Of a stretch of 64,000 nucleotides of DNA, positions 1,890-33,089 are shown piece after piece. Positions within the stretch are counted from its first letter, which is position 1, and the number at the start of each line of letters is the position of its first letter. Source of the DNA: Anaerolineae bacterium (GTDB lineage Bacteria; Chloroflexota; Anaerolineae; B4-G1; SLSP01); NCBI GenBank assembly GCA_016931315.1, contig JAFGFB010000214.1, forward strand, positions 8,353-72,352, written 5' to 3'. A program made the position numbers and the translations under genes. The notes beneath the pieces are model-generated. The model saw nothing but the letters and a program-made list of their open reading frames with translations. It had not been told where the DNA came from and made no database searches.

Positions 1890-1901
1890 AACGAGACGGC
1901 G

Positions 1902-2585: not shown

Positions 2586-2596
2586 AACGAGCTCGT

Positions 2597-3022: not shown

Positions 3023-3036
3023 CAGAGCAGATTCTC

Positions 3037-5060: not shown

Positions 5061-5200
5061 AGGGCATAGGACAGATTATTGGGAAAAATCAAAAGTAGGC
5101 AAATACCTTCTCTTTGATTGATTTTTGGCGCTGGGGCTTTGCCCCAGCGCCAAAAATCAATTTTCTTCGAGATTTTCACCCCCGTTTTGAAACGCCCCCC
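5061..5200 (-). repeat. dispersed intergenic repeat, copy A (reverse orientation), with a perfect 20-bp stem hairpin at 5118-5160
   Basis: The reverse complement aligns with 17136-17262 and 56490-56653. Shared head GGGGGYGCGTTTCAAAACGGGGG, a GATTTTT...AAAAATC hairpin, and tail TTTTCCCAAWAATCTRTYCTATGCCC. Confidence 0.8.
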
Positions 5201-5216
5201 AATGATGTTACAACTT

Positions 5217-5244
5217 TTGGGAAGTAGCCGCTTTAGGATATAAT
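5217..5244 (+). promoter_or_regulatory. candidate sigma70-type promoter (TTGGGA-N16-TATAAT) giving a leaderless helicase-operon mRNA
   Basis: The consensus TATAAT at 5239-5244 ends 7 nt before the ATG at 5252. There is no Shine-Dalgarno sequence in between. Confidence 0.35.
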
Positions 5245-5251
5245 AGGCGCT

Positions 5252-7372: not shown

Positions 7373-9660
7373 TGCAAATGGAATTCCAGCCCCGATCAGC
7401 ACAAAAAGCCGTACTTGCCTATAGAGGCGGGAAAATTGGCGTTGCCGCGGTGCCAGGTAGCGGCAAGACATGGACACTTTCACGTCTGGCTGCCGACCTG
7501 ATTGCCGAAGGCTATGTGGGCGATGACCAGGAAATACTTGTCGTTACGCTGGTAAATTCCGCAGTCTCCAACTTCGCTTCACGAGTGGGGAGTTTTGTCC
7601 AGGAAGCGGGCCTGCTGCCCAATTTGGGCTATCGCGTTCGAACCCTCCACGGTTTATGCCACGATATTGTCCGTGAACGCCCCGCGCTTGCAGGGCTGGC
7701 GAATGATTTCCAAATCATTGATGAGCGTGAAGCAGAAGAAGTCCTGCGCGATGCTGCTGAAGCCTGGCTACGAGCGCACCCTCAAGCGTTGGATGATTAC
7801 CTGCTGCCAGATATGGATGAATCCAAGGCCGGCTGGATACGCCGCGAGCAGCTTCCTCCAATGGTCGTGAGTCTGGCGACGAGTTTTATCAAAAAAGCCA
7901 AGGACCTGCAGTTCACGCCTGCGGAATTGCGGTATTATCTGGACCACTTCGATATGTCGTTACCCCTGGTAGAGATGGGGGCGGAAATCTATACAGATTA
8001 TCAGCGCGCACTGAGCTATCGCGGCAAAGTTGACTTCGACGATCTCATCCGCCTGGCGCTGCAAGCCCTGCAGCTCGACCCCGAATTTTTACTGCGATTA
8101 CGGCGGCGCTGGCCCTTTATCCTCGAGGATGAGGCCCAAGACAGCAGCCGCCTGCAAGAAAGCATTCTGCGCTTATTGTGTGGGGCAGAAGGGAATTGGG
8201 TACGCGTTGGAGACCCCAATCAAGCCATCTATGAAACCTTCACGACTGCAAACCCGCGTTATCTGCATGATTTTATAGAAGAGAAAGATGTTACCGGTAT
8301 GAATCTGCCGGACTCTGGACGCTCGACACGAAGCATCATTGACCTGGCAAACCAGCTCAGTGATTGGACGCAAACCTCCCATCCCGTTACGCGTGTGCGC
8401 GGCGCGCTCTCGTTACCCAAAATCAGAGCAGTGCCTGCCAACGACCCACAGCCTAACCCACAGGACGCGCCTGAGCGGATACTCCTCAGCCTGAAGCGTT
8501 TTACACCGCAAGAAGAGATAGAAGCCGTGATTACATCGGTCTCGCGCTGGGTTGCAACACAAGCCGAATGTACTGATGTGAGTGAGCGCGAAACTTGCGC
8601 CATCCTCGTGCCCCGCAATCAACGTGGCTTTGAAATCGTAGAAGCCCTCAAACAACAAGAGATTCCGTATATTGAATTACTCCGAAGCACCCGCTCCACG
8701 CGCGAGACCGCCGGCGCGCTGGGCAATATCATCGCCTATCTCGCAGACCCAACATCAACCACAAAACTCGCGACCACGTACCGGGTATGGCGACGTCAGG
8801 ACCGGCAAAATGGGGAACTTAAGGCACAACTCGAGTGGGTCAACCGTCAACTACATAAATGCCGGCAGGTGGAGGATTTCCTATGGCCCCGTGCCGGGCG
8901 TGATTGGCTCGAGACACTCGATCTGGAAACAGAACACCCCCAGATACATACACAGCTATTGGAATTCCGTGCCCAAGTGCAACGCTGGCAAGCTGCCGCC
9001 AACCTTCCCATTGACCAACTCATCCTTACCCTGGCGCAAGACCTGTGCACTGAGCCTGCGGACCTGGCAATTGCGCACAAATTGGCGCTGGTCGTCCGCC
9101 GCGCCGCCAATCAACATCCCGAGTGGCGTCTACCTGAGCTCACGCAGGAGCTTGCCGTCATCGCCAGAAATGAGCGGAAATTCCTCGGGCTGAGCGAAGA
9201 TGATACGGGCTTCGAACCACAGAAATATCGCGGGCAAGTGGTCGTCTCCACCGTCCACAAAGCCAAAGGTCTGGAATGGGATCGCGTCTATCTGATGTCG
9301 GTAAGTACGTACGACTATCCTTCGGCGCTGGCAGGCGATAGTTTCATATCCGAGAAATGGTATGTCCGGGACAAACTCAACCTGGAAGCAGAAGCATTGG
9401 CACAATTGCAAGCCTTACGCGATGATCCGACGCTCTTCTTCTACGATGAGGGGCAGCCCACCCAAGGGGCGCGCTATGACTACGCGGCAGAACGCGTGCG
9501 CCTCTTTTACGTCGGCATCACGCGGGCGAAAAAGGCGCTTGTGGTGACCTGGAACACCGGAAAACGAGGGGACCAACATCCGGCGGCGCCCCTGATTGCG
9601 TTAGAAACATGGTGGCAAGAACATCTTCAAAGCCAGGAAGCCACGTCGCTGGACGCATGA
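7372..9660 (+). CDS. UvrD/Rep/AddA-family SF1 DNA helicase
   Basis: AVPGSGKT (motif I), ILEDEAQD (motif II), VSTVHKAKGLEWDRVYL (motif V) and YVGITRAKKALVV (motif VI). GTG at 7372, or ATG at 7378. Confidence 0.9.
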   Translation: MQMEFQPRSAQKAVLAYRGGKIGVAAVPGSGKTWTLSRLAADLIAEGYVGDDQEILVVTLVNSAVSNFASRVGSFVQEAGLLPNLGYRVRTLHGLCHDIVRERPALAGLANDFQIIDEREAEEVLRDAAEAWLRAHPQALDDYLLPDMDESKAGWIRREQLPPMVVSLATSFIKKAKDLQFTPAELRYYLDHFDMSLPLVEMGAEIYTDYQRALSYRGKVDFDDLIRLALQALQLDPEFLLRLRRRWPFILEDEAQDSSRLQESILRLLCGAEGNWVRVGDPNQAIYETFTTANPRYLHDFIEEKDVTGMNLPDSGRSTRSIIDLANQLSDWTQTSHPVTRVRGALSLPKIRAVPANDPQPNPQDAPERILLSLKRFTPQEEIEAVITSVSRWVATQAECTDVSERETCAILVPRNQRGFEIVEALKQQEIPYIELLRSTRSTRETAGALGNIIAYLADPTSTTKLATTYRVWRRQDRQNGELKAQLEWVNRQLHKCRQVEDFLWPRAGRDWLETLDLETEHPQIHTQLLEFRAQVQRWQAAANLPIDQLILTLAQDLCTEPADLAIAHKLALVVRRAANQHPEWRLPELTQELAVIARNERKFLGLSEDDTGFEPQKYRGQVVVSTVHKAKGLEWDRVYLMSVSTYDYPSALAGDSFISEKWYVRDKLNLEAEALAQLQALRDDPTLFFYDEGQPTQGARYDYAAERVRLFYVGITRAKKALVVTWNTGKRGDQHPAAPLIALETWWQEHLQSQEATSLDA

Positions 9661-9679
9661 TAAGCTATGAGGAGTTAGT

Positions 9680-10534
9680 GTGATTCGCAATAACACGACC
9701 CAACTTGCACCCAATTTCCAATTCAGCCAATCGAGCCTGCAAGATTACGTCGAGTGTAAGCGACGCTTTCAGCTGCGGTATATTGAACGGGTCGCGTGGC
9801 CGGCAGTGCAAGCACAACCCATTCTCGAACATGAAGCACGGTTAGCCAATGGCCAGGCCTTTCACCGGTTGGTACAGCAGCAGTTACTCGGCATCCCCGA
9901 AACCCGGCTGACGCCCGTTGATGACGATTTGCGCCGTTGGTGGCAAGCCTATTTGGAAACACGCCCGGCAGACATCGAGGGACGCCGCTACATCGAAATC
10001 GCTCTAGCAGCCACGATTGCGGACCAACGTCTTGTCGCGCAGTATGACCTGGTAGTCATCACCCCGCAGTCAGCACAAATCTTCGATTGGAAAACTTCCA
10101 CCCACCCGGAAAAGCCCGAAACAACACGCCGGCTCTTCGAACGAATGCAAACGCGTGTATATCGCTATCTGCTCGTCCGTGCTGGCGCTGACCTGAACGA
10201 CGGACAATCTATTGCCCCAGAACAGGTCACCATGACCTATTGGTTTGCAGAAACACCCGAAGAGCCGGTGCATTTCGCCTATAATGCCGATCAATTTGCA
10301 GCCGACGAACGGGTTCTGACGTCTCTCATCACCGAAATCCAGATGCAGGAACTGAATAGCCCCTGGGAACTCACAACCCAGGAGAGAACATGCGCGTTCT
10401 GCCCTTATCGCTCTTTGTGTGAACGTGGCGTCGAAGCTGGCGAAACGCAAGCAGGGGACGAGGTCGAGATCGAGTTATCAACACCAGGTATTCTGGATCT
10501 GGACCTCGATCAGATTGCAGAAATCCCCTTCTGA
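9680..10534 (+). CDS. PD-(D/E)XK nuclease with Cas4/AddB-type 4-Cys Fe-S cluster signature
   Basis: GTG start with GAGGAG 5 nt upstream. Motifs YDLVV, FDWKT (D-x-K), QTRVY (QxxxY), an N-terminal Cys (YVECKRRF), and C-terminal [10 protein letters not shown] (C-x2-C-x5-C). Confidence 0.8.
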
Positions 10535-10548
10535 CAAGGTTGGAGATT

Positions 10549-10575
10549 TTGATTCAGTCACAAATCGTATATAAT
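10549..10575 (+). promoter_or_regulatory. candidate sigma70-type promoter for gpmA (TTGATT-N15-TATAAT)
   Basis: Near-consensus hexamers about 60 nt upstream of the gpmA ATG. An alternative -35 offset gives a 17-nt spacer. Confidence 0.45.
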
Positions 10576-10632
10576 CCAGGTACCAAGAAGTTTAGTCATT
10601 CACAAACAGCATATTCCAGGAGGTTGACCACA

Positions 10633-11379
10633 ATGTACAAAGTCGTATTGCTACGTCATGGCGAAAGTGTTTGGAACCAGGAAAACCTTTTCACCGGCTG
10701 GACGGATGTAGACCTCTCCGAAAAAGGTGTCAAAGAGGCGCACACTGCCGGAAAAACCCTACGCGCTGAAGGCTACACCTTCGACGTCGCTTTCACCTCG
10801 GTGCTCAAACGCGCTATCCGCACCCTCTGGATCACCCTGGATGAAATGGATCTGATGTGGATTCCCGTTCACCGGCATTGGCGGCTAAATGAACGGCACT
10901 ACGGCGCGCTTCAGGGGCTGAACAAAGCCGAGACTGCCGCGAAATATGGCGACGAGCAGGTCCTTATCTGGCGACGCAGTTACGATATCCGTCCCCCGGC
11001 GCTGGACCCCGCCGATGAACGCTGGCCCGGGCATGATCGCCGCTACGCGGACCTCAAGCCCGAAGAATTGCCGGTTCACGAATGCCTCAAAGACACCGTG
11101 GAGCGCTTCCTCCCCTACTGGCTCGATACCATTGCCCCCGTGGTTAAGTCTGACAAGCGCGTCGTCATCGCCGCACACGGCAATAGTCTCCGTGCACTTG
11201 TAAAATATCTCGATGACATCTCCGATGAGACCATTCTCAAACTCAACATCCCTACCGGCGTCCCCCTCGTCTATGAGCTGGATGAGCATCTCAAGCCCAT
11301 CACCCATTACTACCTCGGCGATCCTGAGGCTATCGCTGCAGCTCAGCAAGCCGTAGCTAATCAAGGAAAGGCAAAATAA
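10633..11379 (+). CDS. gpmA: 2,3-bisphosphoglycerate-dependent phosphoglycerate mutase
   Basis: [29 protein letters not shown] is the canonical dPGM N-terminus (RHGE catalytic His). [10 protein letters not shown] provides the second His. GGAGG RBS upstream of the ATG at 10633. Confidence 0.95.
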
Positions 11380-17674: not shown

Positions 17675-18382
17675 ATGTTAGCAATGATGCTCTTGGCTCA
17701 TTTGATAGGTGACTATATACTGCAATTCAATGCGCTGGTTCGATGGAAGACACGTTCACTTTTGGGCGTTCTCGCGCATGGAGCTATTGTCACCGTGGTA
17801 ACAGTGCTCGCAGCACTGACGGTTAAACCTGCGTGGTGGCCCTATGCACTGCTCATTGGGGCAAGCCATACCCTGATAGATATCGTGCGTGCCAGGCTGA
17901 TAGTCGCCCAAAATCCAGGGCTTGACCTGCTCTACTTTCTGCTCGATCAGGCTGCACATCTTGGCATCATCGTTGCTGTGACCTTCTGGAGCGAGGCGCC
18001 GACACCCTCCCCCGCCTGGTTCAGCCCTCAGGCGATTGCCCTCGCCGCAGGATTGCTTTTTTTGCTGCAACCAGCATGGGTATTGTTGCGGTTCCTCGTT
18101 CGCGGCGTGTGGGGCGAATCCGCCGCGCCTCCGCTGGGTGCAGGCGAAAAGTACTTCCCGATGTTAGAGCGCCTTGCGATCGCACTGCTGGCGCTCACCG
18201 GAATGGGATACCTGATTCCGCTAGCGTTGCTGCCGGGGCGAATTGAACGCCTGCAAGGGCAAGAACATAACATCATGATTTTGATACGCAGCGGGGACTC
18301 CTGGATTGAAAGCGCCTTGAGCATTCTCTGTGCCCTCGGCGTAGGGCTGGGGTTGCGATATCTGGGATTGGCTGCTTTCTAG
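17675..18382 (+). CDS. DUF3307-like integral membrane protein
   Basis: LLAHLIGDYILQ N-terminal motif and about 7 hydrophobic helices. The ATG at 17675 has GAAGGAGGG 4-5 nt upstream. The ORF-track GTG at 17603 has no RBS. Confidence 0.6.
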   Translation: MLAMMLLAHLIGDYILQFNALVRWKTRSLLGVLAHGAIVTVVTVLAALTVKPAWWPYALLIGASHTLIDIVRARLIVAQNPGLDLLYFLLDQAAHLGIIVAVTFWSEAPTPSPAWFSPQAIALAAGLLFLLQPAWVLLRFLVRGVWGESAAPPLGAGEKYFPMLERLAIALLALTGMGYLIPLALLPGRIERLQGQEHNIMILIRSGDSWIESALSILCALGVGLGLRYLGLAAF

Positions 18383-18418
18383 TGTGGGTGTTTTTGATTT
18401 GGCGCAGGAGGGTTGAAA

Positions 18419-19168
18419 ATGGGCACAATAGGGCTACAATGGAATCTGCTTCCGGGCGCGGTACCCACAAGCACGAGGACTTGTCGGGATAACACGATGG
18501 GGACTACAGACACAGTCGAATTGCTGTCATTGCTGCATCCGCTGCCACTCTTCCGCGGCTTGAGTGCGCAGGAGATGCGAATTTTGCTGGCTGAGGCACG
18601 CCATCGCATCTTCCAGGTTGAGCAGCTTATCTTCGCACAAGACGAAGCCGGGGAAACCTGCCACATCATTATACAAGGACGCGTGCGCATTTTTGTCATC
18701 GGCGAAGATGGTCGAGAACTCTCCATGCGAATTCTAGGTCCTGGCGAAATCATTGGCGAGATGGCGCTTTTCGAGAACCTGCCACGCTCCGCAAGCGTGG
18801 TCTCCCTGGATGAAACGCATACCCTCGAACTTGACCAGGAAGCGTTGATGCGTTGCCTGCGCCGCTGCCCCGCGTTAGCCCTGAGCCTGTTGCAGGCTTT
18901 GAGCGCCCGCCTGCGCCACACAACCGAGGAGGCTGAAGGGTTAGCATCACAGCCTGTACCAGAGCGCCTGCTAAGGCGCCTGCAACAGCTGGCAAATAGC
19001 TCCGGCGTTCGCGTCCATGATGGACTTCGCATCGCTTTGCCGATGACCCAGCAAGAGCTCGCTACGCTAATCGGCACAAGCCGCGAGAGCGTCAATCGCG
19101 CCCTCGTGCGCCTGAAACAACAAGGTGCTATTCGCGTAGAAGGCGGGTGGATTATTCTTCTCGATTGA
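18419..19168 (+). CDS. Crp/Fnr-family transcriptional regulator (cNMP-binding + HTH)
   Basis: cNMP-binding pattern LFRGLS...GEIIGEMALFE..PRSASV, and HTH TQQELATLIGTSRESVNRAL. AGGAGGG RBS before the ATG at 18419. The 3' end overlaps the convergent S8 gene by 17 nt. Confidence 0.9.
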   Translation: MGTIGLQWNLLPGAVPTSTRTCRDNTMGTTDTVELLSLLHPLPLFRGLSAQEMRILLAEARHRIFQVEQLIFAQDEAGETCHIIIQGRVRIFVIGEDGRELSMRILGPGEIIGEMALFENLPRSASVVSLDETHTLELDQEALMRCLRRCPALALSLLQALSARLRHTTEEAEGLASQPVPERLLRRLQQLANSSGVRVHDGLRIALPMTQQELATLIGTSRESVNRALVRLKQQGAIRVEGGWIILLD

Positions 19169-21578
19169 TCACAGGTTCGCCACACCGGGAGCAGAAACGA
19201 CTGTTAGGCCGTAGTTCGGCTCCACAACGACGGCAGTAATGCACCGGTGCTTTGAAATCCAGAGGCGAACCACAAGCCGCACAAAAACGCGCGCCCGGTC
19301 GCGCCCGCGCCCCGCACACCGGGCAGACTGGGGTCGCAACCGGCTTCACCGCAGATGGGGGTTGTGGGCCTTCAGGCGGCTTAGGCACCGAACCAACTCG
19401 CTCCGTCGCCGGCAACTCGAGCGATGCCGGAGGTAAGGGCTGCGGTGCGGGCCGAACAGGGGGCGTCCGGGGCGGCATAGCTGGGCTTGCGGGCCCCGGT
19501 CGTGCAGCCCCTGGGCTTGCAGGCGGCGGATAGGACGGACGCAACGGTTGATAGGGCATGGCACGCTGGGCGGGGGTCCGCCCACTGCGTACCACAATGA
19601 CCACGGCAGCCAACAAGAAACCCGCTCCGGTACACCCCAAACCACCTATGAACAAACCCCAGAGTACCGTCCCGGCGTTGGAAGAACCTTCTTCCAACGG
19701 GCTTTCTTCAGGTATCTCTAGCGTGACAAATGCCACAGCTGTAGCAGTGGCGGTGGGCGGGAGAGGCGTTGTAGCAACAGGATCGGATACCGCTTCTGCA
19801 GTAGGGGTGGGTGGCAATACCAGGCCCGGTACGGCTGCAGGCAATTGTAGGCGACCATGTCCAAAACCTGTATCTGGACCTGTTGGGCCAAAATCCAACG
19901 CATTGACCAGCAAGTAATCTTTCACCTGTTCGCGAGTAAAACCCGGGTTTGCCTCCCAAACCAGCGCTGCTGCTCCCGCAACATGTGGGGTGGAAGCCGA
20001 AGTCCCATCAAACCCAGACTCCCCATAGGTCGCGCCAGAAACCCCCGCAGGTGCGGACATATCGGGCTTCAGCCGTCCATCCGTCGTAGGTCCCTGAGAA
20101 CTATAACTTGCCAGGCGATCGTTCCACCAGTTTGTAGCCCCCACAGTGAGCGCGTTCGCAGCATCGCCGGGCGAGCTGACACTATATGCGGATGAGGACT
20201 GCCCCACTTCTGCATTTGACCCATGAACAAAGATATCCAAAGTCACGGGCTGAGTGACATTGAATGCCTGCACAGCGGCGTAGACGGTGTCACCATCTGT
20301 GCGCACCCACGCCACCTCAGCCGGTCTCTGCCCCAGCGTGCCGTCCTGCGGTTCTTCCGAAGTTGCCAGCACAGTCCCCTGATCATCCACAATCACCAAT
20401 TCCAAATCTTGCACGGGTCGCTGCCAGTCATCCTCCCATACCAGATAGACTTCGACTTCATCGAGGCTATAAACAGGTAAAACCTCATCACCAACGGAGA
20501 ATTCGTGATAACCATCCCCATCTTCATCGGCGAAAATTCCACGATGATGTGTGAGAGCCTCATTGCCAGCAGAGTTTACCCAGAGAATGCCCTCGGCAGC
20601 GGTCTCGTCCACCAGATGCGTCCCCCACCCGGTTCCATCTCTGGGACTAACCACAGCGCCAACCGAGTGGGAAATGATATTGACCTGTTGCGTACGCAAC
20701 CATTCCACCGCTTCGCCGAGCGCAGCGTCCGAGCCATCATACCAGGCGAAAAAAAGAGTCGCCTCTGGGGCGACCTCATGAATGATTTCAGCGCAGGCGG
20801 CGCCATGGACTTCTGCGGCATCATACCAACCAAAGGTCTGCAACGTCACATTCGCAGGCAATTCGGTGCCGAGCAGCGCTTCGTAGCCCGCGAACCCCAA
20901 ATCCAGCACGCCGATGCGCAGGCCAGCCCCCGTAAAACCCGCAGCGTGCCACGCATCTGCACCTACCAGACTCACACCCTCACCGAGAATGTCACCTTGA
21001 GGATTCAGACTCTCCGGCTTGCGAGTCTCAGGCAAACGCACAGCGATGACATGCTCTAATTGCGTGAGTTGTTGAAAAACCGAGGCAGTATCCTCGCCGG
21101 CTTCCTGTGAGAGAAACTGTTCCTCAATGAGCGCCAATGGAACAGAGACATTGACCCGGTCACGGTAGGCACTGACAACATCAATGCCAGCCGCGCGCAA
21201 TTCCTCAGTCAGAGCGGTATTGTCCTCGGTGTCCAACACCAGGGTTACCCGCAGATTAAGCCCATCGGGTGTGAACAACCCACGCTCCTGCGCAAGCGCC
21301 GCCGCCGCCTCGCGACCTCCCGTCTGATAGGCAACCAAAAATTCCTTGTAGACCGCATCCAGTTGCGCATCATTCAGCAGCGGTGCAATCTGAGGATACT
21401 TTTCTGCCAGTTCTGTCAATGATGGCAACGGGGTCAGGTCAGTCAAATCAGGGACTTCTGACAAGGATATCTGAGGCAACAGAACATTCGGCCTAAGAAA
21501 GAAAAACAAGGCTATAGCCGTACCCAGAAGGATAACGCCACCCCCTAGCAGCAATACGAGCATTGATTTCTTTTTCAT
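19152..21578 (-). CDS. bitopic S8 (subtilisin-like) serine protease with a cytoplasmic Pro-rich tail and two C-terminal zinc ribbons
   Basis: Catalytic triad contexts GVLDLGF (Asp), HGAACAEI (His) and GTSASTPHVAGAAAL (Ser). N-terminal signal anchor and a second TM (LFIGGLGCTGAGFLLAAVVIVV). Ribbons CPVCGARARPGARFCAACG and CRRCGAELRPNSRFCSRCG. ATG at 21578. Confidence 0.9.
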   Translation of the reverse strand: MKKKSMLVLLLGGGVILLGTAIALFFFLRPNVLLPQISLSEVPDLTDLTPLPSLTELAEKYPQIAPLLNDAQLDAVYKEFLVAYQTGGREAAAALAQERGLFTPDGLNLRVTLVLDTEDNTALTEELRAAGIDVVSAYRDRVNVSVPLALIEEQFLSQEAGEDTASVFQQLTQLEHVIAVRLPETRKPESLNPQGDILGEGVSLVGADAWHAAGFTGAGLRIGVLDLGFAGYEALLGTELPANVTLQTFGWYDAAEVHGAACAEIIHEVAPEATLFFAWYDGSDAALGEAVEWLRTQQVNIISHSVGAVVSPRDGTGWGTHLVDETAAEGILWVNSAGNEALTHHRGIFADEDGDGYHEFSVGDEVLPVYSLDEVEVYLVWEDDWQRPVQDLELVIVDDQGTVLATSEEPQDGTLGQRPAEVAWVRTDGDTVYAAVQAFNVTQPVTLDIFVHGSNAEVGQSSSAYSVSSPGDAANALTVGATNWWNDRLASYSSQGPTTDGRLKPDMSAPAGVSGATYGESGFDGTSASTPHVAGAAALVWEANPGFTREQVKDYLLVNALDFGPTGPDTGFGHGRLQLPAAVPGLVLPPTPTAEAVSDPVATTPLPPTATATAVAFVTLEIPEESPLEEGSSNAGTVLWGLFIGGLGCTGAGFLLAAVVIVVRSGRTPAQRAMPYQPLRPSYPPPASPGAARPGPASPAMPPRTPPVRPAPQPLPPASLELPATERVGSVPKPPEGPQPPSAVKPVATPVCPVCGARARPGARFCAACGSPLDFKAPVHYCRRCGAELRPNSRFCSRCGEPVINREE

Positions 21579-21596
21579 GAACCTGATCACCTGCCA

Positions 21597-22628
21597 TCAA
21601 AAAGCTATACCAATAACGATTTCCGATGATGTGCGCCGGTCAAGGTAGGGTGAACTCTCTTGTACTTCGAAAGTAACACCCGCCCACACACGAGCGATAC
21701 CCACACGCCTGCCTTCAAGTCGAAACACCACCGTCTGTTCAGCGCCAGGCTCTAGCAACCCCGCTTGTTCAATGACCAGTGGTCCCACAGCTTCTGAAGC
21801 AACCAGCAGATCATCCCAAGACCCCTCTAGCGAATAGCGCATTCGCCCCAGGGCCACTTCACCAGTATTGACCAACGTCACCGTAAACAACACCGGTTCA
21901 CCAATGCGCACCGCCTGTGCTGAAGCGGTCAACACCACCCTGGCATCCGAAAGGCCAGAAGGTGTGATAGGAACAGTTGCCGTTAAGGTAGGTGTTGGCA
22001 GGGATAATGTCTGCGTGAGCGTAGCTATGGGTAAGGGCGCATCCAGTGTGGATGTGGGCAATAATACGGGAGGCAAAGCAGGTGGAGTTATCGTAGGGTT
22101 GGGCAAAGCGGTTTGTAGTGGAGCATCAGGAGTGTCCATTGCCGCCGGTGTGATTGTGGCTTGTTCAGCCCCCCCCACAAAGGGCAAGCGACCCTGGCGT
22201 AACCACGTTGCCATCGTCACTAACGCAAGAACGACACACCCTAAGAATATCAGCCCCCCCAATACAATCCACAGCGTTTGCGGTGTGCGAGTCGCTGGCG
22301 CAGGCACCGGCATCAAGCCATAATCCGGCACGACTGCAGGCTCTGAGCGCAACGCCGCATTTCCTGCCGCTTCAACTGAAGCGCGCTCGGCTGGAGACGA
22401 TGGTGGCGAGGCGACTTTGGGCGTTGAAGCATCAAGGGCAGCCCCACACCGGGGACAAAAGCGCCCCCCCGCTTTCACAGTTGCGCCACAAGCGGGGCAG
22501 ACTACCGAAGGCGGCGTCCCATCCGGTGCTGGGGGGGCACTCGCTGGAGTCACCGCAAGCGGATAACCACACTTGCGACAGAAGCGCACCTCTGGGCGAT
22601 TTTCAGTGCCGCAATTTGAACACCGCAT
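21597..22628 (-). CDS. double zinc-ribbon / TM / CARDB-DUF11-like Ig-fold protein
   Basis: MRCSNCGTENRPEVRFCRKCG and CPACGATVKAGGRFCPRCG, one TM, then an extracytoplasmic beta-rich domain (GEPVLFTVTLVNTGEVAL). AGGAGGG RBS. Confidence 0.75.
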   Translation of the reverse strand: MRCSNCGTENRPEVRFCRKCGYPLAVTPASAPPAPDGTPPSVVCPACGATVKAGGRFCPRCGAALDASTPKVASPPSSPAERASVEAAGNAALRSEPAVVPDYGLMPVPAPATRTPQTLWIVLGGLIFLGCVVLALVTMATWLRQGRLPFVGGAEQATITPAAMDTPDAPLQTALPNPTITPPALPPVLLPTSTLDAPLPIATLTQTLSLPTPTLTATVPITPSGLSDARVVLTASAQAVRIGEPVLFTVTLVNTGEVALGRMRYSLEGSWDDLLVASEAVGPLVIEQAGLLEPGAEQTVVFRLEGRRVGIARVWAGVTFEVQESSPYLDRRTSSEIVIGIAF

Positions 22629-22651
22629 CGCAATCCCTCCTATGTCACCTG

Positions 22652-23179
22652 CTACTCACGTTGTGCCAGATAGAGTCGCAACGATGTCTCATCGCTGGCA
22701 ACCGCCACCACTTCAAGCCCTTTCGAACCGACGCGTCCCACTAACTCTGTGTTCACAATATCATTCATTTCGTCCATAACACTACCTGGAACCAGGCGCA
22801 GCAGCGAGAGCCGCCCCATCTTCACATGCAACAATTGCACAGCCATACCGCCAGCCCCATCAGCGCGAAAAGCCACAGCGCCACGCGCCACGGGCTTGAA
22901 AGGGCCGGCTGCCAGCTGTACACCAAAGGTCGCTGCACCACCAGGCTGCATGTCCACATTCCCGGCAGTCAACGCATTGCTGGATTCCAGCATTACGCGA
23001 TTGATATACGTCTCCTCAATGATAACTTCCATATCATAGGCTGGCAACGGAGGTAAAGGCCCCACCGTAGATTCTTTGTCCAAAACTCTAACCAGGAGCC
23101 AGCCCCCCACAACACCGGCTACCAGGCCCAGAAACACGCCCCCCAGCAACAACAACCCTGATTTCAGCTGTGTGTTCAT
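22652..23179 (-). CDS. membrane-anchored DUF2993/LmeA-like protein (low-confidence family call)
   Basis: N-terminal TM followed by a beta-rich domain paralogous to the C-terminus of the upstream gene (shared E.Y.N....D.QP...T.DE..L.L pattern). Confidence 0.45.
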   Translation of the reverse strand: MNTQLKSGLLLLGGVFLGLVAGVVGGWLLVRVLDKESTVGPLPPLPAYDMEVIIEETYINRVMLESSNALTAGNVDMQPGGAATFGVQLAAGPFKPVARGAVAFRADGAGGMAVQLLHVKMGRLSLLRLVPGSVMDEMNDIVNTELVGRVGSKGLEVVAVASDETSLRLYLAQRE

Positions 23180-23193
23180 GCCTGTACTCCAGG

Positions 23194-24045
23194 TTATAAT
23201 CGCGCTTTGAGGATGATGTGCTCTTCATCCGTTGTAATATCCAACAACCGCGAACCCTCACCAAGTTCGTTTTCCAGTTGTTCGCGCAAGGCACGGGTGA
23301 AATTTTTACCTAACGTGACCTCATCCATATTCAGGAATTGCATAAGGTCGCTCCCGCCGGCGACAATGTCTTCGATACTCACCACGATTTCACCATCCAC
23401 AACAGAGAGCCGCGCCATGATTTTGAGCTCCAGGGAAACAAAAACCAGGTCGAAGTTCGCTGTAGTCATAAGAAGATTGTTGGGTTGAACATCCAGAGAT
23501 GCGTCCTTCAAACCCTTCTCGGGCAGAATTGCAACAAGGTTCTCGTTCAGATAAGCTTCGCGTACCAGGATGGTAATATCGTGTCCATTCGGATCGCCAA
23601 GGATCGCAGCAGGAGGTGTATCGTTCAGCCCCGGTAGCAACCCCAATGCCAACACACCACAACAGCTCAGACAAAACATCAATCCCAGAGCCACCAACGC
23701 TAACCACCATCCCACAATACTGCGCTCTGCACGCTTAGCATTTGCAGGCTTTGATAGCCCAGAGCCAACCAGTTTCACAGGAGGGCGTATTGCATCGCGA
23801 TCTGCAGAAACGGGAACGGGCGCTGCTGGTTGAACAGGTTGGTGCTCCTGCGGTGACGCTGACCCCGGGCGTGGTGTACACTCATGACCACAACGCGCAC
23901 AGAAGCGTGCACCCGGCTTTAGCGCCGCGCCACATACAGGACAAGTCAATATTACAGGAGGCGATGCACCCTGCAATACATGTCCACAACGCTTGCAGAA
24001 ACGCGCATCCTCACGGTTTTCGAAACCGCACTGCGGGCATTGCAT
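23194..24045 (-). CDS. double zinc-ribbon / TM / DUF2993-like protein
   Basis: MQCPQCGFENREDARFCKRCG and CPVCGAALKPGARFCARCG, one TM (WWLALVALGLMFCLSCCGVLALGLL), and a C-terminal domain like gene 22652-23179. ATG at 24045 with AAGGGGG RBS. Confidence 0.75.
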   Translation of the reverse strand: MQCPQCGFENREDARFCKRCGHVLQGASPPVILTCPVCGAALKPGARFCARCGHECTPRPGSASPQEHQPVQPAAPVPVSADRDAIRPPVKLVGSGLSKPANAKRAERSIVGWWLALVALGLMFCLSCCGVLALGLLPGLNDTPPAAILGDPNGHDITILVREAYLNENLVAILPEKGLKDASLDVQPNNLLMTTANFDLVFVSLELKIMARLSVVDGEIVVSIEDIVAGGSDLMQFLNMDEVTLGKNFTRALREQLENELGEGSRLLDITTDEEHIILKARL

Positions 24046-24071
24046 CGGACGCCCCCTTTCTATAGAAAACC

Positions 24072-25820
24072 TCAATCCGAAATCGTCCAGTCCAGGTCTG
24101 ACTGGAAATCCACCTCGAACTCCGAAACCAGATCATTACCCTCACAATCTTGCGTTAGCAAATCGTACGTTCCCGGAGTGAAAAAGAATACCCGCTGCCC
24201 CCCTCCGGAATCAATAGACTCACTCTCGCCAAGCCAATCATCACCCCAAGAATCCGCCGTAGTCGAGGAAATGTAAACATAGCAGATTTCATCGCTGGAA
24301 TCATTGATCAGATGCAGCGAAACTAATCCCATGCCGCCCACATCCAACGTAGTATCCTGGCTAATCTTCCAGGCAGTAGCAAGCACCACATCATCGCAAT
24401 CGCTAAGCTTGACATCATAGGTACCCGCCGGAACATCAAATACCCGCGAATCACCTGAATAGATCAGATCTTCCTCGCCAAGCCAGTCTTCACCCCAGCT
24501 GTCACTATCAGAAGCGGAGATTTGAACATAGCAGACGTCATAATCGCTGTAATTAGCAACGGTGAGCTGGAAAGCCCCGGCAGAGGGAACAGTGGTGAGT
24601 TCCGGTTCCGTGGGAGCCACAGTCGGAGAAGGCGCGCGCGACGTAGGCGTCTGCAATTCCGGCAGTGGAGTCGGATTCACACGAGTAACGGCAGTAGCGG
24701 TAGGCATCTCAGTCGGGCTAGCGAAAAAGCCACTTCCGCGAATCAGGAACAGCGCACCGCAAACGACACTTGCGCCAAGAATGAGCACGCCAAGTCCTCC
24801 AATAATCCAAACCCAGGGGGAGAGTCGTTTTTTGGGTGGGGCATCCCGGCCCCCAGGCATAGCAGCAGCCGAATTATTGCCCACTGACAATGGAGAATGG
24901 CCCGACACCCCTGGCGCCGGAGGGGGAGTGCTGACCGGTTGATAAACCGGGCTAACTGCAGCCGGAATAGTAGCCGGAAAAGGTTGCGCCACGCGCTGAC
25001 TCACCAGAGCATCCGTCATCGCAGCCGCCGTGGGGAAACGGCGATCCAATTGAAGTTCCATCGCCCGCGAAATAATCGCTTCCAGAGAGGGCGAAATCTG
25101 CCCATTAATAGCGCGTGGCGTCTTAAAAGCGCCTGGCATTGCCATGCGCTGCGTGGCTGTTGCCGGCGCCTGCCCGGTAAGCGCATGATAGAGTGTCGCC
25201 CCAAGGCTATAGAGGTCACTGCGGGCATCCGTATGGCTACTATGGGTATCATACTGCTCCGGCGGCGCATATTCCGGCGTACCCATACCGCGCATAATCG
25301 TCTGCGTACGTGGATCATTCGGATTCCACAGCTTCACCAAACCAAAATCCACCAACACCGCTTTACCGGTCGCATGAATGATCACATTCTGAGGTTTGAT
25401 ATCGCGATGAATGATGCCTTCCGCATGACAGTATGCCAGAGCATCCAGCAACTGCCTGCCCCACGCAACAACTTGCGCTTCGGATTGTGCCCCTTCGCGC
25501 AGCAGTTTATCCGCCAGGCTCTCGCCCAGCACAAAATCCATCACCAGATAGGCATTGCTACCCTCTTCAAAGAAATCGGTCACCCGTACCAGATTGGGAT
25601 GATTGAGTCGCGCAAGAATCGTCGCTTCCTGACGGAATTGGTCGCGTAAACCGGCGAGCGTAGCCTGATCCAAACCGGGTTGGGGGCGCATTTCCTTAAG
25701 CGCAACCGCGACATTCAAACGCGTATCCCAGGCGCGATAAACCGCTCCCATACCGCCCTCACCCAACAGGGCCACAATGCGATAACGTTCCTGCAATAAT
25801 TGTCCAGGCTCAAGTGCCAT
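24072..25820 (-). CDS. Ser/Thr protein kinase K1 (family A) with TM and two tandem Cys/Trp-motif ectodomains
   Basis: GEGGMGAVY, VALKEM, HRDIKPQN, DFGLVK and GTPEYAPPE. TM WVWIIGGLGVLILGASVVCGALFLI. GGAGG RBS. Confidence 0.95.
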   Translation of the reverse strand: MALEPGQLLQERYRIVALLGEGGMGAVYRAWDTRLNVAVALKEMRPQPGLDQATLAGLRDQFRQEATILARLNHPNLVRVTDFFEEGSNAYLVMDFVLGESLADKLLREGAQSEAQVVAWGRQLLDALAYCHAEGIIHRDIKPQNVIIHATGKAVLVDFGLVKLWNPNDPRTQTIMRGMGTPEYAPPEQYDTHSSHTDARSDLYSLGATLYHALTGQAPATATQRMAMPGAFKTPRAINGQISPSLEAIISRAMELQLDRRFPTAAAMTDALVSQRVAQPFPATIPAAVSPVYQPVSTPPPAPGVSGHSPLSVGNNSAAAMPGGRDAPPKKRLSPWVWIIGGLGVLILGASVVCGALFLIRGSGFFASPTEMPTATAVTRVNPTPLPELQTPTSRAPSPTVAPTEPELTTVPSAGAFQLTVANYSDYDVCYVQISASDSDSWGEDWLGEEDLIYSGDSRVFDVPAGTYDVKLSDCDDVVLATAWKISQDTTLDVGGMGLVSLHLINDSSDEICYVYISSTTADSWGDDWLGESESIDSGGGQRVFFFTPGTYDLLTQDCEGNDLVSEFEVDFQSDLDWTISD

Positions 25821-29559: not shown

Positions 29560-31656
29560 TCAAGTATCAGCATCCAGGCCTGGATCAAGCGCCAGAGCGC
29601 GTTGCCGGGAGGTTTCCGCCTTAGCAGAATCCCCTAGAGCCTGCCAGCACGTGCTCAAACCCAGATGTGCTGCGGGTAGGCCCGGGTTGAGCGCAATGCT
29701 CCTCTCATACGCCTCAAGCGCCTCACGCCAACGGCCCCAATCCGCATAGAGTTCACCCACAAAGAACTCTGCCAGCGCATGTCGCGAATCCAAACGAAGC
29801 GTATCGTGGAAATTCCGCATCGCCCAACGCTGACTGCCTTTCTTGTAATTGAGCACCCCTTTAAGAAATTCCAACTCTGCCGTAGGCAAACTCTCCTGCT
29901 GAAGCAGGTCTTGCACCAAAGGCTCAGCCTCAGACAGTTTTCCTCCCAATAGATAGCAGACAGCCAAACGACCACGGAAAATCGGGTCCTGCGAACGGGT
30001 TCGAAGCAAATGCTCGAAATTCGCCGCAGCATCACTGTAGCGTCCCAAACTAAAGGCCGTATCTGCGGCCAATGTTGCCAGGTCAACATCACCAGGTTGC
30101 AATCCCAAAGCTTGCTCCAGATGTTCCAATGCCGCTGCAGGGCGCTTCATAGTGAGCGCCGTCTTACCCAAAGCGACGTGAAGCTCGGGTGACTGCGGAT
30201 ACTTTTCAAGCCCCTTTTCTAATGCCGCAAGAGCAGCATCGAGGTCTTGAGACTGTGTATGGGCTTTCCCTAGGGCCACGTAGATCTCAACTGACTGCGC
30301 TTCAACCTGCAATGCAGATTCAAATGCAGCCACAGCTTCCTTGAAACGCCCGGCTTGAAAATGCTGCAAGCCTTCTGCAGCAAAATCCGGTGGCGCAGGT
30401 GGAGTTACAGCAACCTCCTCAACAGCGATTGGAGCTGACACAGGAGCTGCTGGAACAGATGATGCCTGGAGCTCGGAATCCGGGGGTCCAGTGATGGGCA
30501 AAGATGCTCCGCACTTAGCACAGAAACGTGCGCCAGAGCGATACGGGGTGGCGCAGTTAGGGCAACGATGACTGGTATCCATAGTCTTGCCGCATTGAGG
30601 ACAAAAACGTGCCCCTAACCGCACCAACGCACCACATTGTGGGCAAGTTACCCCAGGTGAGGAGCTGCCGCCAACCGTGGAAGAGCGTTGCGGCGTAACT
30701 GCCGTGGGTGGTTTGCTACTTTCACTACGCGAGGGCGGAGGTGGTGTGTGTTGCGAGGCTATGGGTGCAATCAATGGTCGCCGTATTACCGCAACGCTGG
30801 AGCGTCGCGTGACCGGGCGCCCCGCAACCGTTTGGAGAGCAGCTAACATCTCGCCCGCATCGCGGAAACGCTGGGCAACGTTCACCGACATTGCCTGCAA
30901 TACCACCTTCTCAAGAACAGAGTTCACCTTCGAGTTCAACTGTGAAGGCGGAGTGAGCGCTGCTCCACGCATCAAACGCTCGAAACTATCAGCGGGTGGC
31001 GTAAGCGTAAGGACACAATAAAGCGTGGCGCCAAGGGCGTATACATCCGAGCGTGTATCCGTGCCCCCTCCCAGACCATATTGCTCTGGTGGAGAGAAAC
31101 CTTGCGATACCGCTTTTGCCATCACCTGCGTCTTAGCTTTGGGATCAATCTTGGCAATGCCGAAATCCACCAGCACGGCACGATCCTTCTGGGTGAGGCG
31201 AACATTATTCGGTTTGATATCACGATGAATGATAGGAGGTTGCTGTTGATGCAAGTACCCTACCGCATCACAAACCTGAATCATCCAATCTATCGCCTTA
31301 TCTATCGGGAAATGGCGACGTTGTTTCTCTGCATCTATCACCAAGTCGAGCAAATCCCGTCCGGCAATGTAATCCATCACAAGATAATAACTACGCCCCT
31401 CACCGAAGAAATCCGAAACACGCACCAGACCGGGATGGTCGAGCGCCGCAAGCACTTGTGCTTCCTGTTTGAAGAGTTGCTGAGCCGACTCTGAAGGGTC
31501 ACTGAGTTCTTTCACTGCGACCTGGCGCCCGCGCAAACGCAGGTCTTCCGCCAGGTAAACGGAACCATAACCGCCAGAACCCAGCTTCTTGACGATCTGA
31601 TACCGCCCCTGCAGAGCATGCCCTAATGGTAGAGTTGGCAATCCATGTTGCATCAT
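29560..31656 (-). CDS. soluble Ser/Thr protein kinase K4 (family B) with two zinc ribbons and C-terminal TPR repeats
   Basis: GSGGYGSVY, VAVKEL, HRDIKPNN and DFGIAK. Ribbons CPQCGALVRLGARFCPQCG and CPNCATPYRSGARFCAKCG. About 7 TPR-like A..A...AL...P repeats. No TM seen. Confidence 0.93.
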   Translation of the reverse strand: MMQHGLPTLPLGHALQGRYQIVKKLGSGGYGSVYLAEDLRLRGRQVAVKELSDPSESAQQLFKQEAQVLAALDHPGLVRVSDFFGEGRSYYLVMDYIAGRDLLDLVIDAEKQRRHFPIDKAIDWMIQVCDAVGYLHQQQPPIIHRDIKPNNVRLTQKDRAVLVDFGIAKIDPKAKTQVMAKAVSQGFSPPEQYGLGGGTDTRSDVYALGATLYCVLTLTPPADSFERLMRGAALTPPSQLNSKVNSVLEKVVLQAMSVNVAQRFRDAGEMLAALQTVAGRPVTRRSSVAVIRRPLIAPIASQHTPPPPSRSESSKPPTAVTPQRSSTVGGSSSPGVTCPQCGALVRLGARFCPQCGKTMDTSHRCPNCATPYRSGARFCAKCGASLPITGPPDSELQASSVPAAPVSAPIAVEEVAVTPPAPPDFAAEGLQHFQAGRFKEAVAAFESALQVEAQSVEIYVALGKAHTQSQDLDAALAALEKGLEKYPQSPELHVALGKTALTMKRPAAALEHLEQALGLQPGDVDLATLAADTAFSLGRYSDAAANFEHLLRTRSQDPIFRGRLAVCYLLGGKLSEAEPLVQDLLQQESLPTAELEFLKGVLNYKKGSQRWAMRNFHDTLRLDSRHALAEFFVGELYADWGRWREALEAYERSIALNPGLPAAHLGLSTCWQALGDSAKAETSRQRALALDPGLDADT

Positions 31657-31669: not shown

Positions 31670-33076
31670 TTAAGAACTCAGCTCAGAGTGAAATTTGGCC
31701 AGAGCCGTATCAACTCCCGGAAGATCGCCCTCAATCAGGGCAATGCGGGCGCCATCAAGCACCCGATAGGCACGCATCTCTTCCGGCGTTCCTCGAAAGT
31801 TACCAAACAACTGCTCATAAGCAGTAGTAACCGCATCCACCGCTTCTACCAGAGTTTCGGGCTCGAAAGTAACTTCGGCATGATGCTCTGCCAGGCTCGC
31901 CTTCCAATCAGATTCCAATGCCGGCAATGATTTGCCATAAACACCACTATAATCACCGGTAGGATAGAGTTGCGCGAATTTCTCAGGCCCATACACATCC
32001 AGCAAATATTGGACAAAACATCCCGCAGCATAGTAATTCTCTAAATCTCGAATGTGCCCCTGAAAACTCAGGTTTGCTGAAACACGCGGCAGCACTCCAG
32101 CAAGATCATAGGCCGCACAGAAGACCCGGAGAGGTAAATGCCCCTCCCCAGCTACAGCACTCATACCTGTGGAAACTGCAGCGCCTTCACTCAACATCGC
32201 CGAAACTGGTCGCCCAAAGACGTTCCAGGCATATAAATGCGTAAGTTCATGGGTGGCGATATATTGTTGATCAGCCGGGCTACCGGTGCCATCATGAAGG
32301 AAAAAATAGCGTCGAGATGCAGAGACACTGAATCCACGCAGAGCTTGATTGGGAGCAGCGAAAATCGAGCCTGCCACATAGACATCAAAAGACCCGACCA
32401 AAGGCTGCGCAAAAGTTTGTTCAATATACCCCAATCCCCGCGTCACCATAGCCGCTGTGGCAGCAGCATTCTGCGCCGGGTAGGTTCCTGGAGCAAAATG
32501 CAAGGTAAAACGTTCCATTGCCATGGTCTCTGGATATTCTGCAGCAAGATCCCCTTCAATGGCTGAGGGCACCCACACTTCAACCGTGGATGGTGTTGAC
32601 AGTGGAGTATCCGTTACGGTAGACACTGGCGGTGACGTCGGTGTTGAGACGATCACACCAGCCAAAGGGATAGTAAGCACTTGTCCAGGCCAGATTGTCT
32701 CACCGATAATGTTACTTGCCATTGAAAGCGCTTCGACACTCACCTCGAAACGCGTGGAGAGCTCCCAAAGAGTATCGTCAGGCTGCACAGTATAAGTGAG
32801 AATCTTTGCAGGCTCAAGAGTTGGCTCAGATTCCAGTCTGACCGTCGTCGGGGCAACTTCCGGTGATAACATCGGCGTGGGCGTGACGGTCTCCTCGATT
32901 ACGGGCACAACAGCCTCCGTAACCACCAACGTGGCAGAAGGTGGTAGTGATGTTGCGATAGGCGCGGCGCCAGAACGGCCCAGGACAAACACAAGCGCCA
33001 ATATCACAAGGCCAAGCCCCAATGCCGCACCCAGCCCGATTAAAACATCCCGTTTGGAAATTGTCTGCAAATTCAA
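31670..33076 (-). CDS. membrane-anchored LysM + peptidase-MA-like (HExxH) protein
   Basis: LysM YTVQPDDTLWELSTRFEVSVEALSMASNI...GQVLTIP, and metallopeptidase motif ATHELTHLYAW. The start was moved to the TTG at 33076 (AAGGA 9 nt upstream) because the ORF-track start at 33232 overlaps K5 by 143 nt. The start is uncertain. Confidence 0.7.
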   Translation of the reverse strand: MNLQTISKRDVLIGLGAALGLGLVILALVFVLGRSGAAPIATSLPPSATLVVTEAVVPVIEETVTPTPMLSPEVAPTTVRLESEPTLEPAKILTYTVQPDDTLWELSTRFEVSVEALSMASNIIGETIWPGQVLTIPLAGVIVSTPTSPPVSTVTDTPLSTPSTVEVWVPSAIEGDLAAEYPETMAMERFTLHFAPGTYPAQNAAATAAMVTRGLGYIEQTFAQPLVGSFDVYVAGSIFAAPNQALRGFSVSASRRYFFLHDGTGSPADQQYIATHELTHLYAWNVFGRPVSAMLSEGAAVSTGMSAVAGEGHLPLRVFCAAYDLAGVLPRVSANLSFQGHIRDLENYYAAGCFVQYLLDVYGPEKFAQLYPTGDYSGVYGKSLPALESDWKASLAEHHAEVTFEPETLVEAVDAVTTAYEQLFGNFRGTPEEMRAYRVLDGARIALIEGDLPGVDTALAKFHSELSS

Positions 33077-33089
33077 GATCGATATTCCT

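Follow-up and report, generated by a model that had tools for sequence, protein, structure and literature searches.

In Sulfolobus, the zinc ribbon of ArnA was found docked on the β-sandwich and C-terminal domains of ArnB in a cocrystal, and after ArnC phosphorylation the FHA domain of ArnA binds the helical bundle of ArnB (PMC12852372). Sec23/24 carry the same ribbon in cis, with the zinc ribbon packed on the β-sandwich/helical region (PMC12852372). On membrane and signalling proteins of bacteria, ribbons of this kind (Pfam PF13240, Zn_Ribbon_1, and PF12773, DZR) are among the commonest annotations of a "domain of unknown role". Their role on membrane proteins has only been guessed at in the literature that we found: a ribbon pair followed by a transmembrane (TM) helix and an ectodomain is a frequent architecture, seen in 73 YARHG proteins, and the authors guessed at a membrane-tethered transcription factor (PMC3355149). 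Here we analyze a stretch of 64,000 nucleotides (hereafter the window) from a metagenome-assembled genome of an Anaerolineae bacterium (Chloroflexota; assembly GCA_016931315.1, contig JAFGFB010000214.1, positions 8,353 to 72,352). The window holds an island of 23 minus-strand genes (19152-56417, ~37 kb) for membrane-associated Ser/Thr phosphosignalling, in which eight proteins carry such ribbons. An earlier note on this DNA, made from the sequence alone, had taken these ribbons for one shared docking tag. We find that the island encodes a pair of proteins homologous, as judged from sequence and modelled fold, to ArnA and ArnB, and that its ribbons fall in at least two conserved classes. The island core could thus be a bacterial counterpart of the ArnA/ArnB switch, with the ribbons as protein-protein tethers, a reading to which we give a probability of about one half.

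An ArnA/ArnB-like pair in the island

The protein named here ZnR-FHA (48093-49028; all island genes and ribbons are on the minus strand) begins with three ribbons and ends with an FHA domain, the two parts joined by a disordered, Pro/Ala-rich linker (Pfam Zn_Ribbon_1 in three stretches, 76.6 bits, and FHA). In searches against PDB sequences it matches ArnA (8s05_C, E = 6.1e-6, and 5a8i), and the alignment extends from the third ribbon (TCPNCGAALEPDSAFCDMCGA versus KCNLCGYENDDDALFCIKCGA in ArnA) through the linker into the FHA domain. This third ribbon (ZF_c, CPNCGAALEPDSAFCDMC, 48654-48707), which was also recovered by the six-frame scan described below, aligns with the ArnA zinc finger CNLCGYENDDDALFCIKC. 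The gene directly upstream (49065-50324) encodes a vWA protein that matches ArnB (8s05_A, E = 1.7e-10) and 5a8j. The order of the two genes is stable: the ZnR-FHA gene lies directly downstream of the vWA gene in 23 of the 23 related loci with sequence available.

The AlphaFold2 model of the vWA protein (pLDDT 87, pTM 0.83) shows N-terminal strands, the vWA domain, a β-sandwich and a C-terminal helical bundle. Foldseek comparison of this model with known structures returned 4fx5 (TM-score 0.78), ArnB (8s05_A, E = 5.5e-25, TM-score 0.66/0.71 over ~425 columns) and ArnE (5a8j); Sec23/24 rank after ArnB and ArnE, with a partial match at TM-scores of 0.5-0.59. No Cys4 ribbon was found in the vWA protein with the regular expression, and its chain ends with the helical bundle, so that the cis zinc finger and gelsolin domain characteristic of Sec23/24 are both absent. 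Among 41 homologues, the MIDAS (metal-ion-dependent adhesion site) residues (DxSxS...T...D; D51, S53, S55, T118, and D148) are invariant, and seven Thr residues in the helical bundle (T342, T348, T363, T371, T403, T410 and T414, within residues 332-418) are invariant or nearly so. By sequence and, for the vWA protein, also by predicted structure, ZnR-FHA and the upstream vWA protein are homologues of Sulfolobus ArnA and ArnB.

Ribbon modules and their distribution

To detect ribbons, we searched the called proteins with a regular expression, and the window in all six frames, for the pattern CxxC-x5-22-CxxC. These CxxC...CxxC elements are confined to 8 of the 23 island genes and comprise 15 canonical CxxC(G)-x9-17-CxxC(G) copies and one degenerate copy, in agreement with the roughly 16 copies in the same eight genes counted in the earlier note. 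When residues were shuffled within the window proteins, the mean number of matches was 0.04 and the maximum was 2, versus the 15 observed. It had also been claimed that the flanking genes are free of ribbons, and indeed none of the 20 flanking open reading frames (ORFs) in the window has one (P = 0.004 for the window alone, Fisher's exact test). All 16 copies give a clean alignment, C-P-x-C-G-x(5-6)-[AG]-R-F-C-x-x-C-G. The "RFC" that had been ascribed to every ribbon does not hold throughout, as the three ZnR-FHA ribbons read AFC/QFC.

Six of the eight proteins match PF13240 or PF12773 above the gathering cut-offs (28.8-76.6 bits; cut-offs 25-27). The motif is therefore not distinct from these generic families, a distinction that the earlier note had put up for checking. 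For the ribbon of the FHA-ABC transporter and the N-terminal ribbon of the protein 35602-37734, Pfam reports nothing at E ≤ 0.01, and they were detected only by the regular expression and a purpose-built hidden Markov model (HMM). The hallmark of both families, two CxxC knuckles (four Cys) with a short β-hairpin loop between them, is present in the 15 canonical copies and, in degenerate form, in one more. By sequence, then, these are Cys4 zinc ribbons of the ordinary PF13240/PF12773 kind, predicted to bind zinc, that have been repeatedly recruited into the island. A double-ribbon profile built from four window proteins, run at E ≤ 1e-3 against 1.84 billion cluster representatives, matches 48,726 of them; against a word-indexed protein database, the same profile matched only fragments of at most 118 amino acids. 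Proteins with up to 16 tandem ribbons of the same type are among the top matches, e.g., P0173 (1317 amino acids).

Two classes of ribbons

The ribbons were thought to be a single small tag. Instead, they fall in at least two classes, acidic and basic, that are conserved in charge and sequence. The acidic class is found in ZnR-FHA and its orthologues, with a mean charge of −1.9 and the consensus A/L-F-C-[DEN]-x-C-G-A; "RFC" occurs in 0 of 40 of these ribbons. In the window it comprises the ribbons ZF_a (CSNCGSQQPDGAAFCDEC, 48951-49004) and ZF_b (CPVCGAQIAPGEQFCNSC, 48804-48857) in addition to ZF_c, and each of the three positions retains its own signature across genera. The basic class comprises the terminal ribbons of all other tagged proteins, namely the S8 protease tail, two ribbon-TM proteins, kinases, the FHA-ABC transporter and the PP2C proteins, with charges of +2 to +5 and a near-invariant a-R-F-C-x-x-C-G. 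One further ribbon, embedded within the second pseudokinase-PP2C protein (copy b), is acidic and reads E-R-Y-C-E-S-C-G.

Conservation in related loci

For comparison we assembled 24 Chloroflexota loci with vWA relatives at 32-84% identity, called their ORFs and searched these with an HMM of the 16 ribbons. Since ribbon homology could itself stretch the "cluster" span, which would be circular, orthologue labels were assigned with the ribbons masked. Within the cluster spans 54 of 162 ORFs bear ribbons, versus 1 of 168 flanking ORFs, and the single outsider abuts a cluster (unmasked version of the test: P ~ 5e-20, Fisher's exact test). Within this sample of cluster and flanking genes, the result speaks against a lineage-wide decoration of proteins.

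In Anaerolineae and Caldilineales alike, it is the same orthologues that bear ribbons, and the enrichment is genuine and conserved. By HMM, 19 of 23 ZnR-FHA orthologues have ribbons; close Anaerolineae have three copies, Caldilineales two, and loci of the Villigracilis type one. Both ribbon positions are kept in 7 of 8 orthologues of pseudokinase-PP2C copy b. Four of six FHA-ABC orthologues bear a ribbon, the N-terminal ribbon being conserved in L004, L005 and L007, and S8 orthologues with a ribbon tail occur in L006, L034, L035 and L026. Across the 24 loci, ribbons are never found on the orthologues of the vWA protein (0 of 26), vWA-FHA, PP2C-TM or TM-FHA. The sub-module around 19152-24045, in the order kinases, ZnR-TM-B, a 175-amino-acid TM protein, an optional ZnR-TM-A and the S8-ribbon protein, has syntenic counterparts in L034 and L035 that keep every ribbon. 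ZnR-TM-B itself is a narrow Anaerolineae family of 16 clusters, in all of which both ribbons are present; its ribbon residues are invariant and its linker is hypervariable.

The earlier note had raised the question whether the number of ribbons co-varies with that of kinases in related genomes. We observed a correlation of rho ~0.5 (P = 0.08-0.11, 13 non-independent loci), whether ribbons were compared with kinases or with the number of ZnR-FHA ribbons, which is not significant. Among the related loci, L018-L025 are minimal systems of a kinase, a PP2C, the vWA protein, a ribbon-FHA protein and 80- and 238-amino-acid ORFs, with a single ribbon that is only on the ArnA-like protein. Expanded systems have two to three ribbons on the ArnA-like protein and basic ribbons on accessory proteins, a trend that is not statistically significant.

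When the seven closest double ribbons were picked blind to their context, four were found in kinase/FHA(/vWA) neighbourhoods. Further ribbon-tagged proteins are found in FHA/kinase neighbourhoods in L029 and L032. The former, an unrelated contig, carries within positions 1-11157 an FHA-FHA-ABC protein, a 96-amino-acid double ribbon, Pkinase-TPR, ribbon-YARHG, FHA, DZR-Lectin_C and TPR-NADase_transloc proteins.

Architecture of the ribbon-bearing proteins

In the membrane proteins, hydropathy places every ribbon on the side that bears the cytoplasmic domains: N-terminal to the single TM helix in ZnR-TM-A and ZnR-TM-B, and C-terminal to the second TM helix (TM2) in the S8 protein. The linkers beside the ribbons contain 26-55% Pro+Ala (55% in ZnR-FHA), compared with 18% in the window proteome. 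The cytoplasmic placement and the Pro/Ala-rich linkers had both been recognized in the earlier note. The individual ribbons described in this section were each found by the regular expression, the six-frame scan and alignment, as were ZF_a and ZF_b, except where another basis is given.

The membrane-anchored S8 subtilase (19152-21590; Pfam Peptidase_S8, 3.7e-32, Zn_Ribbon_1, 53.7 bits, and DZR) is composed of an N-terminal signal anchor, an S8 ectodomain, TM2 (residues 642-660) and a Pro-rich cytoplasmic tail with two basic ribbons, S8_a (CPVCGARARPGARFCAAC, 19272-19325) and S8_b (CRRCGAELRPNSRFCSRC, 19182-19235). ZnR-TM-A (21597-22628; Pfam Zn_Ribbon_1, 54.1 bits, and DZR; TM prediction) starts with two basic ribbons (CSNCGTENRPEVRFCRKC, 22569-22622, and CPACGATVKAGGRFCPRC, 22446-22499), followed by a Pro/Ala linker, one TM helix (residues 119-137) and an ectodomain of ~200 amino acids, for which Pfam gives just a sub-threshold DUF7507 match. 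A similar DZR protein is found at the equivalent position in L035. ZnR-TM-B (23194-24075; Pfam DZR, 47.5 bits) likewise has two basic N-terminal ribbons (CPQCGFENREDARFCKRC, 23986-24039, and CPVCGAALKPGARFCARC, 23890-23943), then a hypervariable linker, a TM helix and an α+β ectodomain of ~130 amino acids. The AlphaFold2 model of this ectodomain (pLDDT 66-86) has no PDB match at E < 0.2 by Foldseek, and there is a weak, sub-threshold Pfam match to the phospholipid-binding family LmeA (E = 0.009). Between the two genes lies a gene for a 175-amino-acid single-TM protein (22652-23179) without ribbon or Pfam family, which directly follows ZnR-TM-B in all relatives (as a 175/183-amino-acid neighbour in L034 and L035). 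The interval 19152-24045 had been described as three genes for ribbon, TM and ectodomain receptors; this layout holds for ZnR-TM-A and ZnR-TM-B, and the interval contains this fourth, ribbon-less gene as well. A role as receptors is putative, given that the ZnR-TM-B ectodomain has no significant structural match. Faint similarity between the 175-amino-acid protein and its neighbour ZnR-TM-B was also noticed.

Among the proteins without a TM helix, a soluble Ser/Thr kinase (29560-31656; Pfam Pkinase, Zn_Ribbon_1, 51.9 bits, and TPR) has two basic ribbons, K4_a (CPQCGALVRLGARFCPQC, 30592-30645) and K4_b (CPNCATPYRSGARFCAKC, 30511-30564), between the kinase domain and the TPR repeats, and L034 holds an orthologue of the same layout. 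Two proteins combine ribbons with a kinase-like domain and PP2C. Copy a (35602-37734; Pfam PP2C; NCBIfam Stp1 PP2C, 237 bits) has a canonical N-terminal ribbon with a long loop (CPRCGAENVEASPPAPGERWFCSQC, 37642-37716) and, in the N-lobe of its kinase-like domain, the degenerate CxxxxC...CxxC ribbon, CPNAAC...CTHC (37018-37089; alignment and hhalign). Copy b (53736-55544; Pfam PP2C and Zn_Ribbon_1, 28.8 bits) has a basic N-terminal ribbon (CPQCGFENRAGARFCLQC, 55485-55538) and the acidic embedded ribbon (CEHCGVASESAEERYCESC, 55137-55193). The middle region of both proteins is kinase-like when compared with the window kinases (hhalign probability 97.8%, E = 1e-12), consistent with the pseudokinase that the first reading had placed there: the HRD loop is degenerate, and the embedded ribbon occupies the place of β3, which would hold the conserved VAIK lysine. 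Only this profile-profile comparison succeeds; Pfam and PDB sequence searches with these regions find nothing except a spurious designed-repeat match. The FHA-ABC transporter (40196-42982) has one basic ribbon at the N-terminus (CRFCGGELRNPKARFCPVC, 42914-42970) and continues with a pair of FHA domains, the ABC ATPase and the ABC-2 permease (Pfam FHA in two stretches, ABC_tran, and ABC2_membrane).

A proposed tethering mechanism and its alternatives

Since ZnR-FHA and the vWA protein resemble ArnA and ArnB, and the ArnA ribbon has been seen docked on ArnB, the cocrystal provides a structural precedent for docking by the acidic ribbons, which is plausible by homology. The acidic ribbons would tether the FHA adaptor to the vWA protein (49065-50324), the candidate docking partner, weakly and independently of phosphorylation. 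The island kinases might then phosphorylate the conserved Thr residues of the vWA helical bundle, upon which the FHA domain would take over, as for ArnA/ArnB. By extension from this pair, which alone supplies the direct precedent, we infer that the basic "aRFCxxCG" ribbons, carried on flexible cytoplasmic linkers, may be analogous small protein-protein tethers. Close to the membrane, they could keep the S8 protease, both ribbon-TM proteins, kinases, the FHA-ABC transporter and the pseudokinase-PP2C proteins together as a single assembly controlled by phosphorylation.

Several observations weigh against this tethering mechanism. The ArnA-ArnB ribbon contact is itself small and weak (~500-570 Å2; PMC12852372). 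The residue before the conserved Phe is Leu in ArnA, Ala in most ZnR-FHA ribbons and an invariant Arg in the basic class; with this Arg beside the Phe of the contacting hairpin, the basic class may not use an ArnB-type site. The top 150 matches to the double-ribbon profile are arrays of 3-16 ribbons, and FHA or kinase domains are found in just 6 of the 150, which indicates that the module is also used outside such signalling; the list is skewed to multi-ribbon arrays by summed scores and carries little information on typical partners. Finally, of the seven double ribbons chosen blind, the remaining three have no kinase, FHA or vWA gene in their neighbourhood. Should docking fail to be borne out, what is left is a lineage-specific accumulation of a generic domain.

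A stronger version of the tethering mechanism, which strikes us as quite a long shot, makes the vWA protein a hub, either by itself or jointly with the trivalent acidic-ribbon FHA adaptor. This hub would read the basic "RFC" ribbons as client tags and bring protease, transporter, kinases, phosphatases and ribbon-TM proteins together in one membrane assembly under the control of phosphorylation. If true, the zinc-finger/trunk logic of Sec23/24 would have a bacterial counterpart that works in trans, a tag on a cytoplasmic tail deciding whether a membrane protein is recruited.

It is also conceivable, and on balance rather unlikely, that the basic ribbons are generic, partner-less cytoplasmic caps that fix an N-in/C-in topology by the positive-inside rule or bind anionic lipid head groups, their abundance reflecting the many membrane proteins of the island. 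Their net charge with the invariant Arg, and their constant cytoplasmic position beside a flexible linker, would be explained in this way. The same holds for the wide occurrence of the double-ribbon profile, for the three context-blind neighbourhoods without signalling genes and for the ribbon pair, TM helix and ectodomain being common generically in Gram-positive-type bacteria (PMC3355149). However, basic ribbons are also present on proteins without a TM helix (the kinase-TPR protein and both pseudokinase-PP2C proteins), and many island membrane proteins are ribbon-free, including five TM kinases and the PP2C-TM, TM-FHA, vWA-FHA, LysM and BNR proteins. Moreover, the S8 ribbons lie ~95 residues away from the membrane, and surface residues beyond the Cys are invariant among orthologues.

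The conservation data bear on another possibility, that the ribbons have no shared function and were spread by local duplication and domain shuffling in a fast-evolving island as neutral or structural appendages. The island is rich in paralogues (seven kinases, three PP2C and five FHA proteins), the ribbons of different proteins can be closely alike (ribbon 1 of ZnR-TM-B and the N-terminal ribbon of pseudokinase-PP2C copy b both contain CPQCGFENR..ARFC), and the number of ZnR-FHA ribbons differs between lineages (one, two or three). Nevertheless, the position and class of the ribbons are conserved per orthologue from 84% to ~37% identity while the adjacent linkers diverge freely, and the three ZnR-FHA ribbons each hold their own signature across genera. 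We consider neutral spread improbable.

Rubredoxin-like CxxCG pairs in mycobacterial PknG have been proposed as redox or zinc sensors, and the Cys4 sites of the island might similarly switch the enzymes to which they are attached. Two ribbons are indeed embedded in the N-lobe of kinase-like domains at the place of β3, and others stand beside kinase, phosphatase, protease and transporter domains. Yet between most ribbons and any enzyme domain there are 30-150 disordered residues or a membrane, and the cytoplasmic part of two tagged proteins contains no enzyme domain. We regard a sensor role as very improbable. Least probable of all is that the ribbons bind nucleic acid, as membrane-tethered transcription factors or RNA binders: zinc ribbons often do so, the Pfam authors proposed it for ribbon-TM-YARHG proteins (PMC3355149), S. 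islandicus ArnA and ArnB bound a promoter in vitro (PMC10470591) and the basic class is positively charged, but the ArnA ribbon is occupied by ArnB, no DNA binding was found for S. acidocaldarius ArnA/ArnB in a 2026 study (PMC12852372), the ribbons of the ArnA-like protein are acidic, gene regulation accords poorly with a tag that is borne by a protease tail, an ABC transporter and kinases, and no other DNA-binding domain was found by Pfam.

Other genes of the island and its flanks

In total the island encodes seven Pkinase proteins, three PP2C proteins, five FHA proteins, two vWA proteins, the S8 protease, and LysM and BNR/sortilin proteins. If the LysM ORF (33090-35075) is taken to begin at the first possible start codon, it shares ~140 nucleotides with the upstream kinase-PD40 gene (31670-33232), and the true start of the LysM protein probably lies further downstream. 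PADLOC models of anti-phage defence gave only generic subtilase and PP2C matches among the window proteins, and a reading of the island as a defence system was dropped for lack of this support.

On the left, the island is bordered by DNA-repair and housekeeping genes. These include, at 5252-11379 on the plus strand, a two-subunit UvrD-like helicase and PD-(D/E)XK nuclease (AddAB-like), followed by a histidine phosphatase and RecJ, all ordinary housekeeping genes. A regulator of the Crp/cNMP-binding family borders the island in the window and its relatives in L026 and L035. A 268-amino-acid ORF with 15 Cys (18379-19185, minus strand) has no family match and is antisense to this real Crp-family gene (18413-19168, plus strand), and was rejected as spurious. 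At 7652-9247 in L035, in a relative of the sub-module at 44% identity, a gene for an FHA-GAF-guanylate-cyclase protein is inserted between the 183-amino-acid TM protein and the ZnR-TM-A-like gene, which hints at a cyclic-nucleotide link. On the right, the island is followed by PMT_2 and by a transglutaminase (+DUF4129)/DUF58/MoxR AAA_3 operon (58736-63595, minus strand). Transglutaminase and/or DUF58 homologues also adjoin the related clusters in L003, L004 and L013, and this operon may be functionally part of the system.

Comparison with known systems

The ribbon domain, the ribbon-TM architecture and the ArnA/ArnB switch are already known. The conflict-system paper of Kaur et al. (2020) mentions ribbons on other components and does not describe this island, and our literature search found no paper on this cluster type; an analogy with FraH (ribbon-FHA) found no support there either. 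In the literature searched, we found no description of a multi-kinase island in bacteria that is centred on an ArnA/ArnB-type pair whose acidic ribbon is triplicated, nor of a second, conserved basic class of ribbons on seven accessory proteins. The island links the PF13240/DZR ribbons to the sole case with a solved complex, ArnA-ArnB. It places an ArnA/ArnB-type pair, with a triplicated ribbon, in Chloroflexota, and makes the question of a docking tag testable on a defined set of proteins.

The ribbon-PP2C proteins resemble the NCBIfam family PRK14559 ("serine/threonine phosphatase", 642 amino acids) in their N-terminal ribbons and C-terminal PP2C, but they score only 102-119 bits against an equivalog cut-off of 374, and differ in the degenerate kinase-like domain with embedded ribbon in the middle. 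In its paired FHA domains, ABC ATPase and ABC-2 permease, the FHA-ABC protein (40196-42982) is built like the Rv1747-type FHA-FHA-ABC exporter of Mycobacterium tuberculosis. The protein of the island has in addition an N-terminal basic ribbon that is conserved in Anaerolineae orthologues.

ZnR-TM-A and ZnR-TM-B share with the described PF13240/DZR-YARHG proteins the arrangement of a ribbon pair, a single TM helix and an ectodomain, whereas their ectodomains contain no YARHG according to Pfam. The island further differs from these PF13240/DZR proteins in having ribbons also on a protease C-tail, a transporter, kinases and phosphatases, all in one place. With the COPII core proteins Sec23/Sec24 (zinc finger, trunk/vWA, β-barrel and helical domain), the vWA protein shares a fold match, and there the ribbon packs on the β-sandwich/helical region as it does in ArnA/ArnB; in the island, however, the ribbon is given in trans by another protein, the vWA protein is without a gelsolin domain, and nothing points to a function as coat or in cargo handling.

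The closest likeness is to ArnA/ArnB (8S05, 5A8I, and 5A8J). In both systems a vWA gene is followed by a ribbon-linker-FHA gene, and there is sequence similarity to both partners. The vWA protein matches over its full length in the fold of vWA, β-sandwich and helical bundle. The ribbon nearest the FHA domain is acidic and reads A/L-F-C-x-x-C-G-A, as in ArnA, and eukaryote-like kinases and a Ser/Thr phosphatase are within the system. On the other hand, the island is bacterial (Chloroflexota) and ArnA/ArnB crenarchaeal, three ribbons are found here versus one there, the phosphatases are PP2C here and PP2A there, and there is no archaellum here. The pair also stands within an island of 23 genes, seven of them for kinases, in which seven other proteins carry a second, basic class of ribbons.

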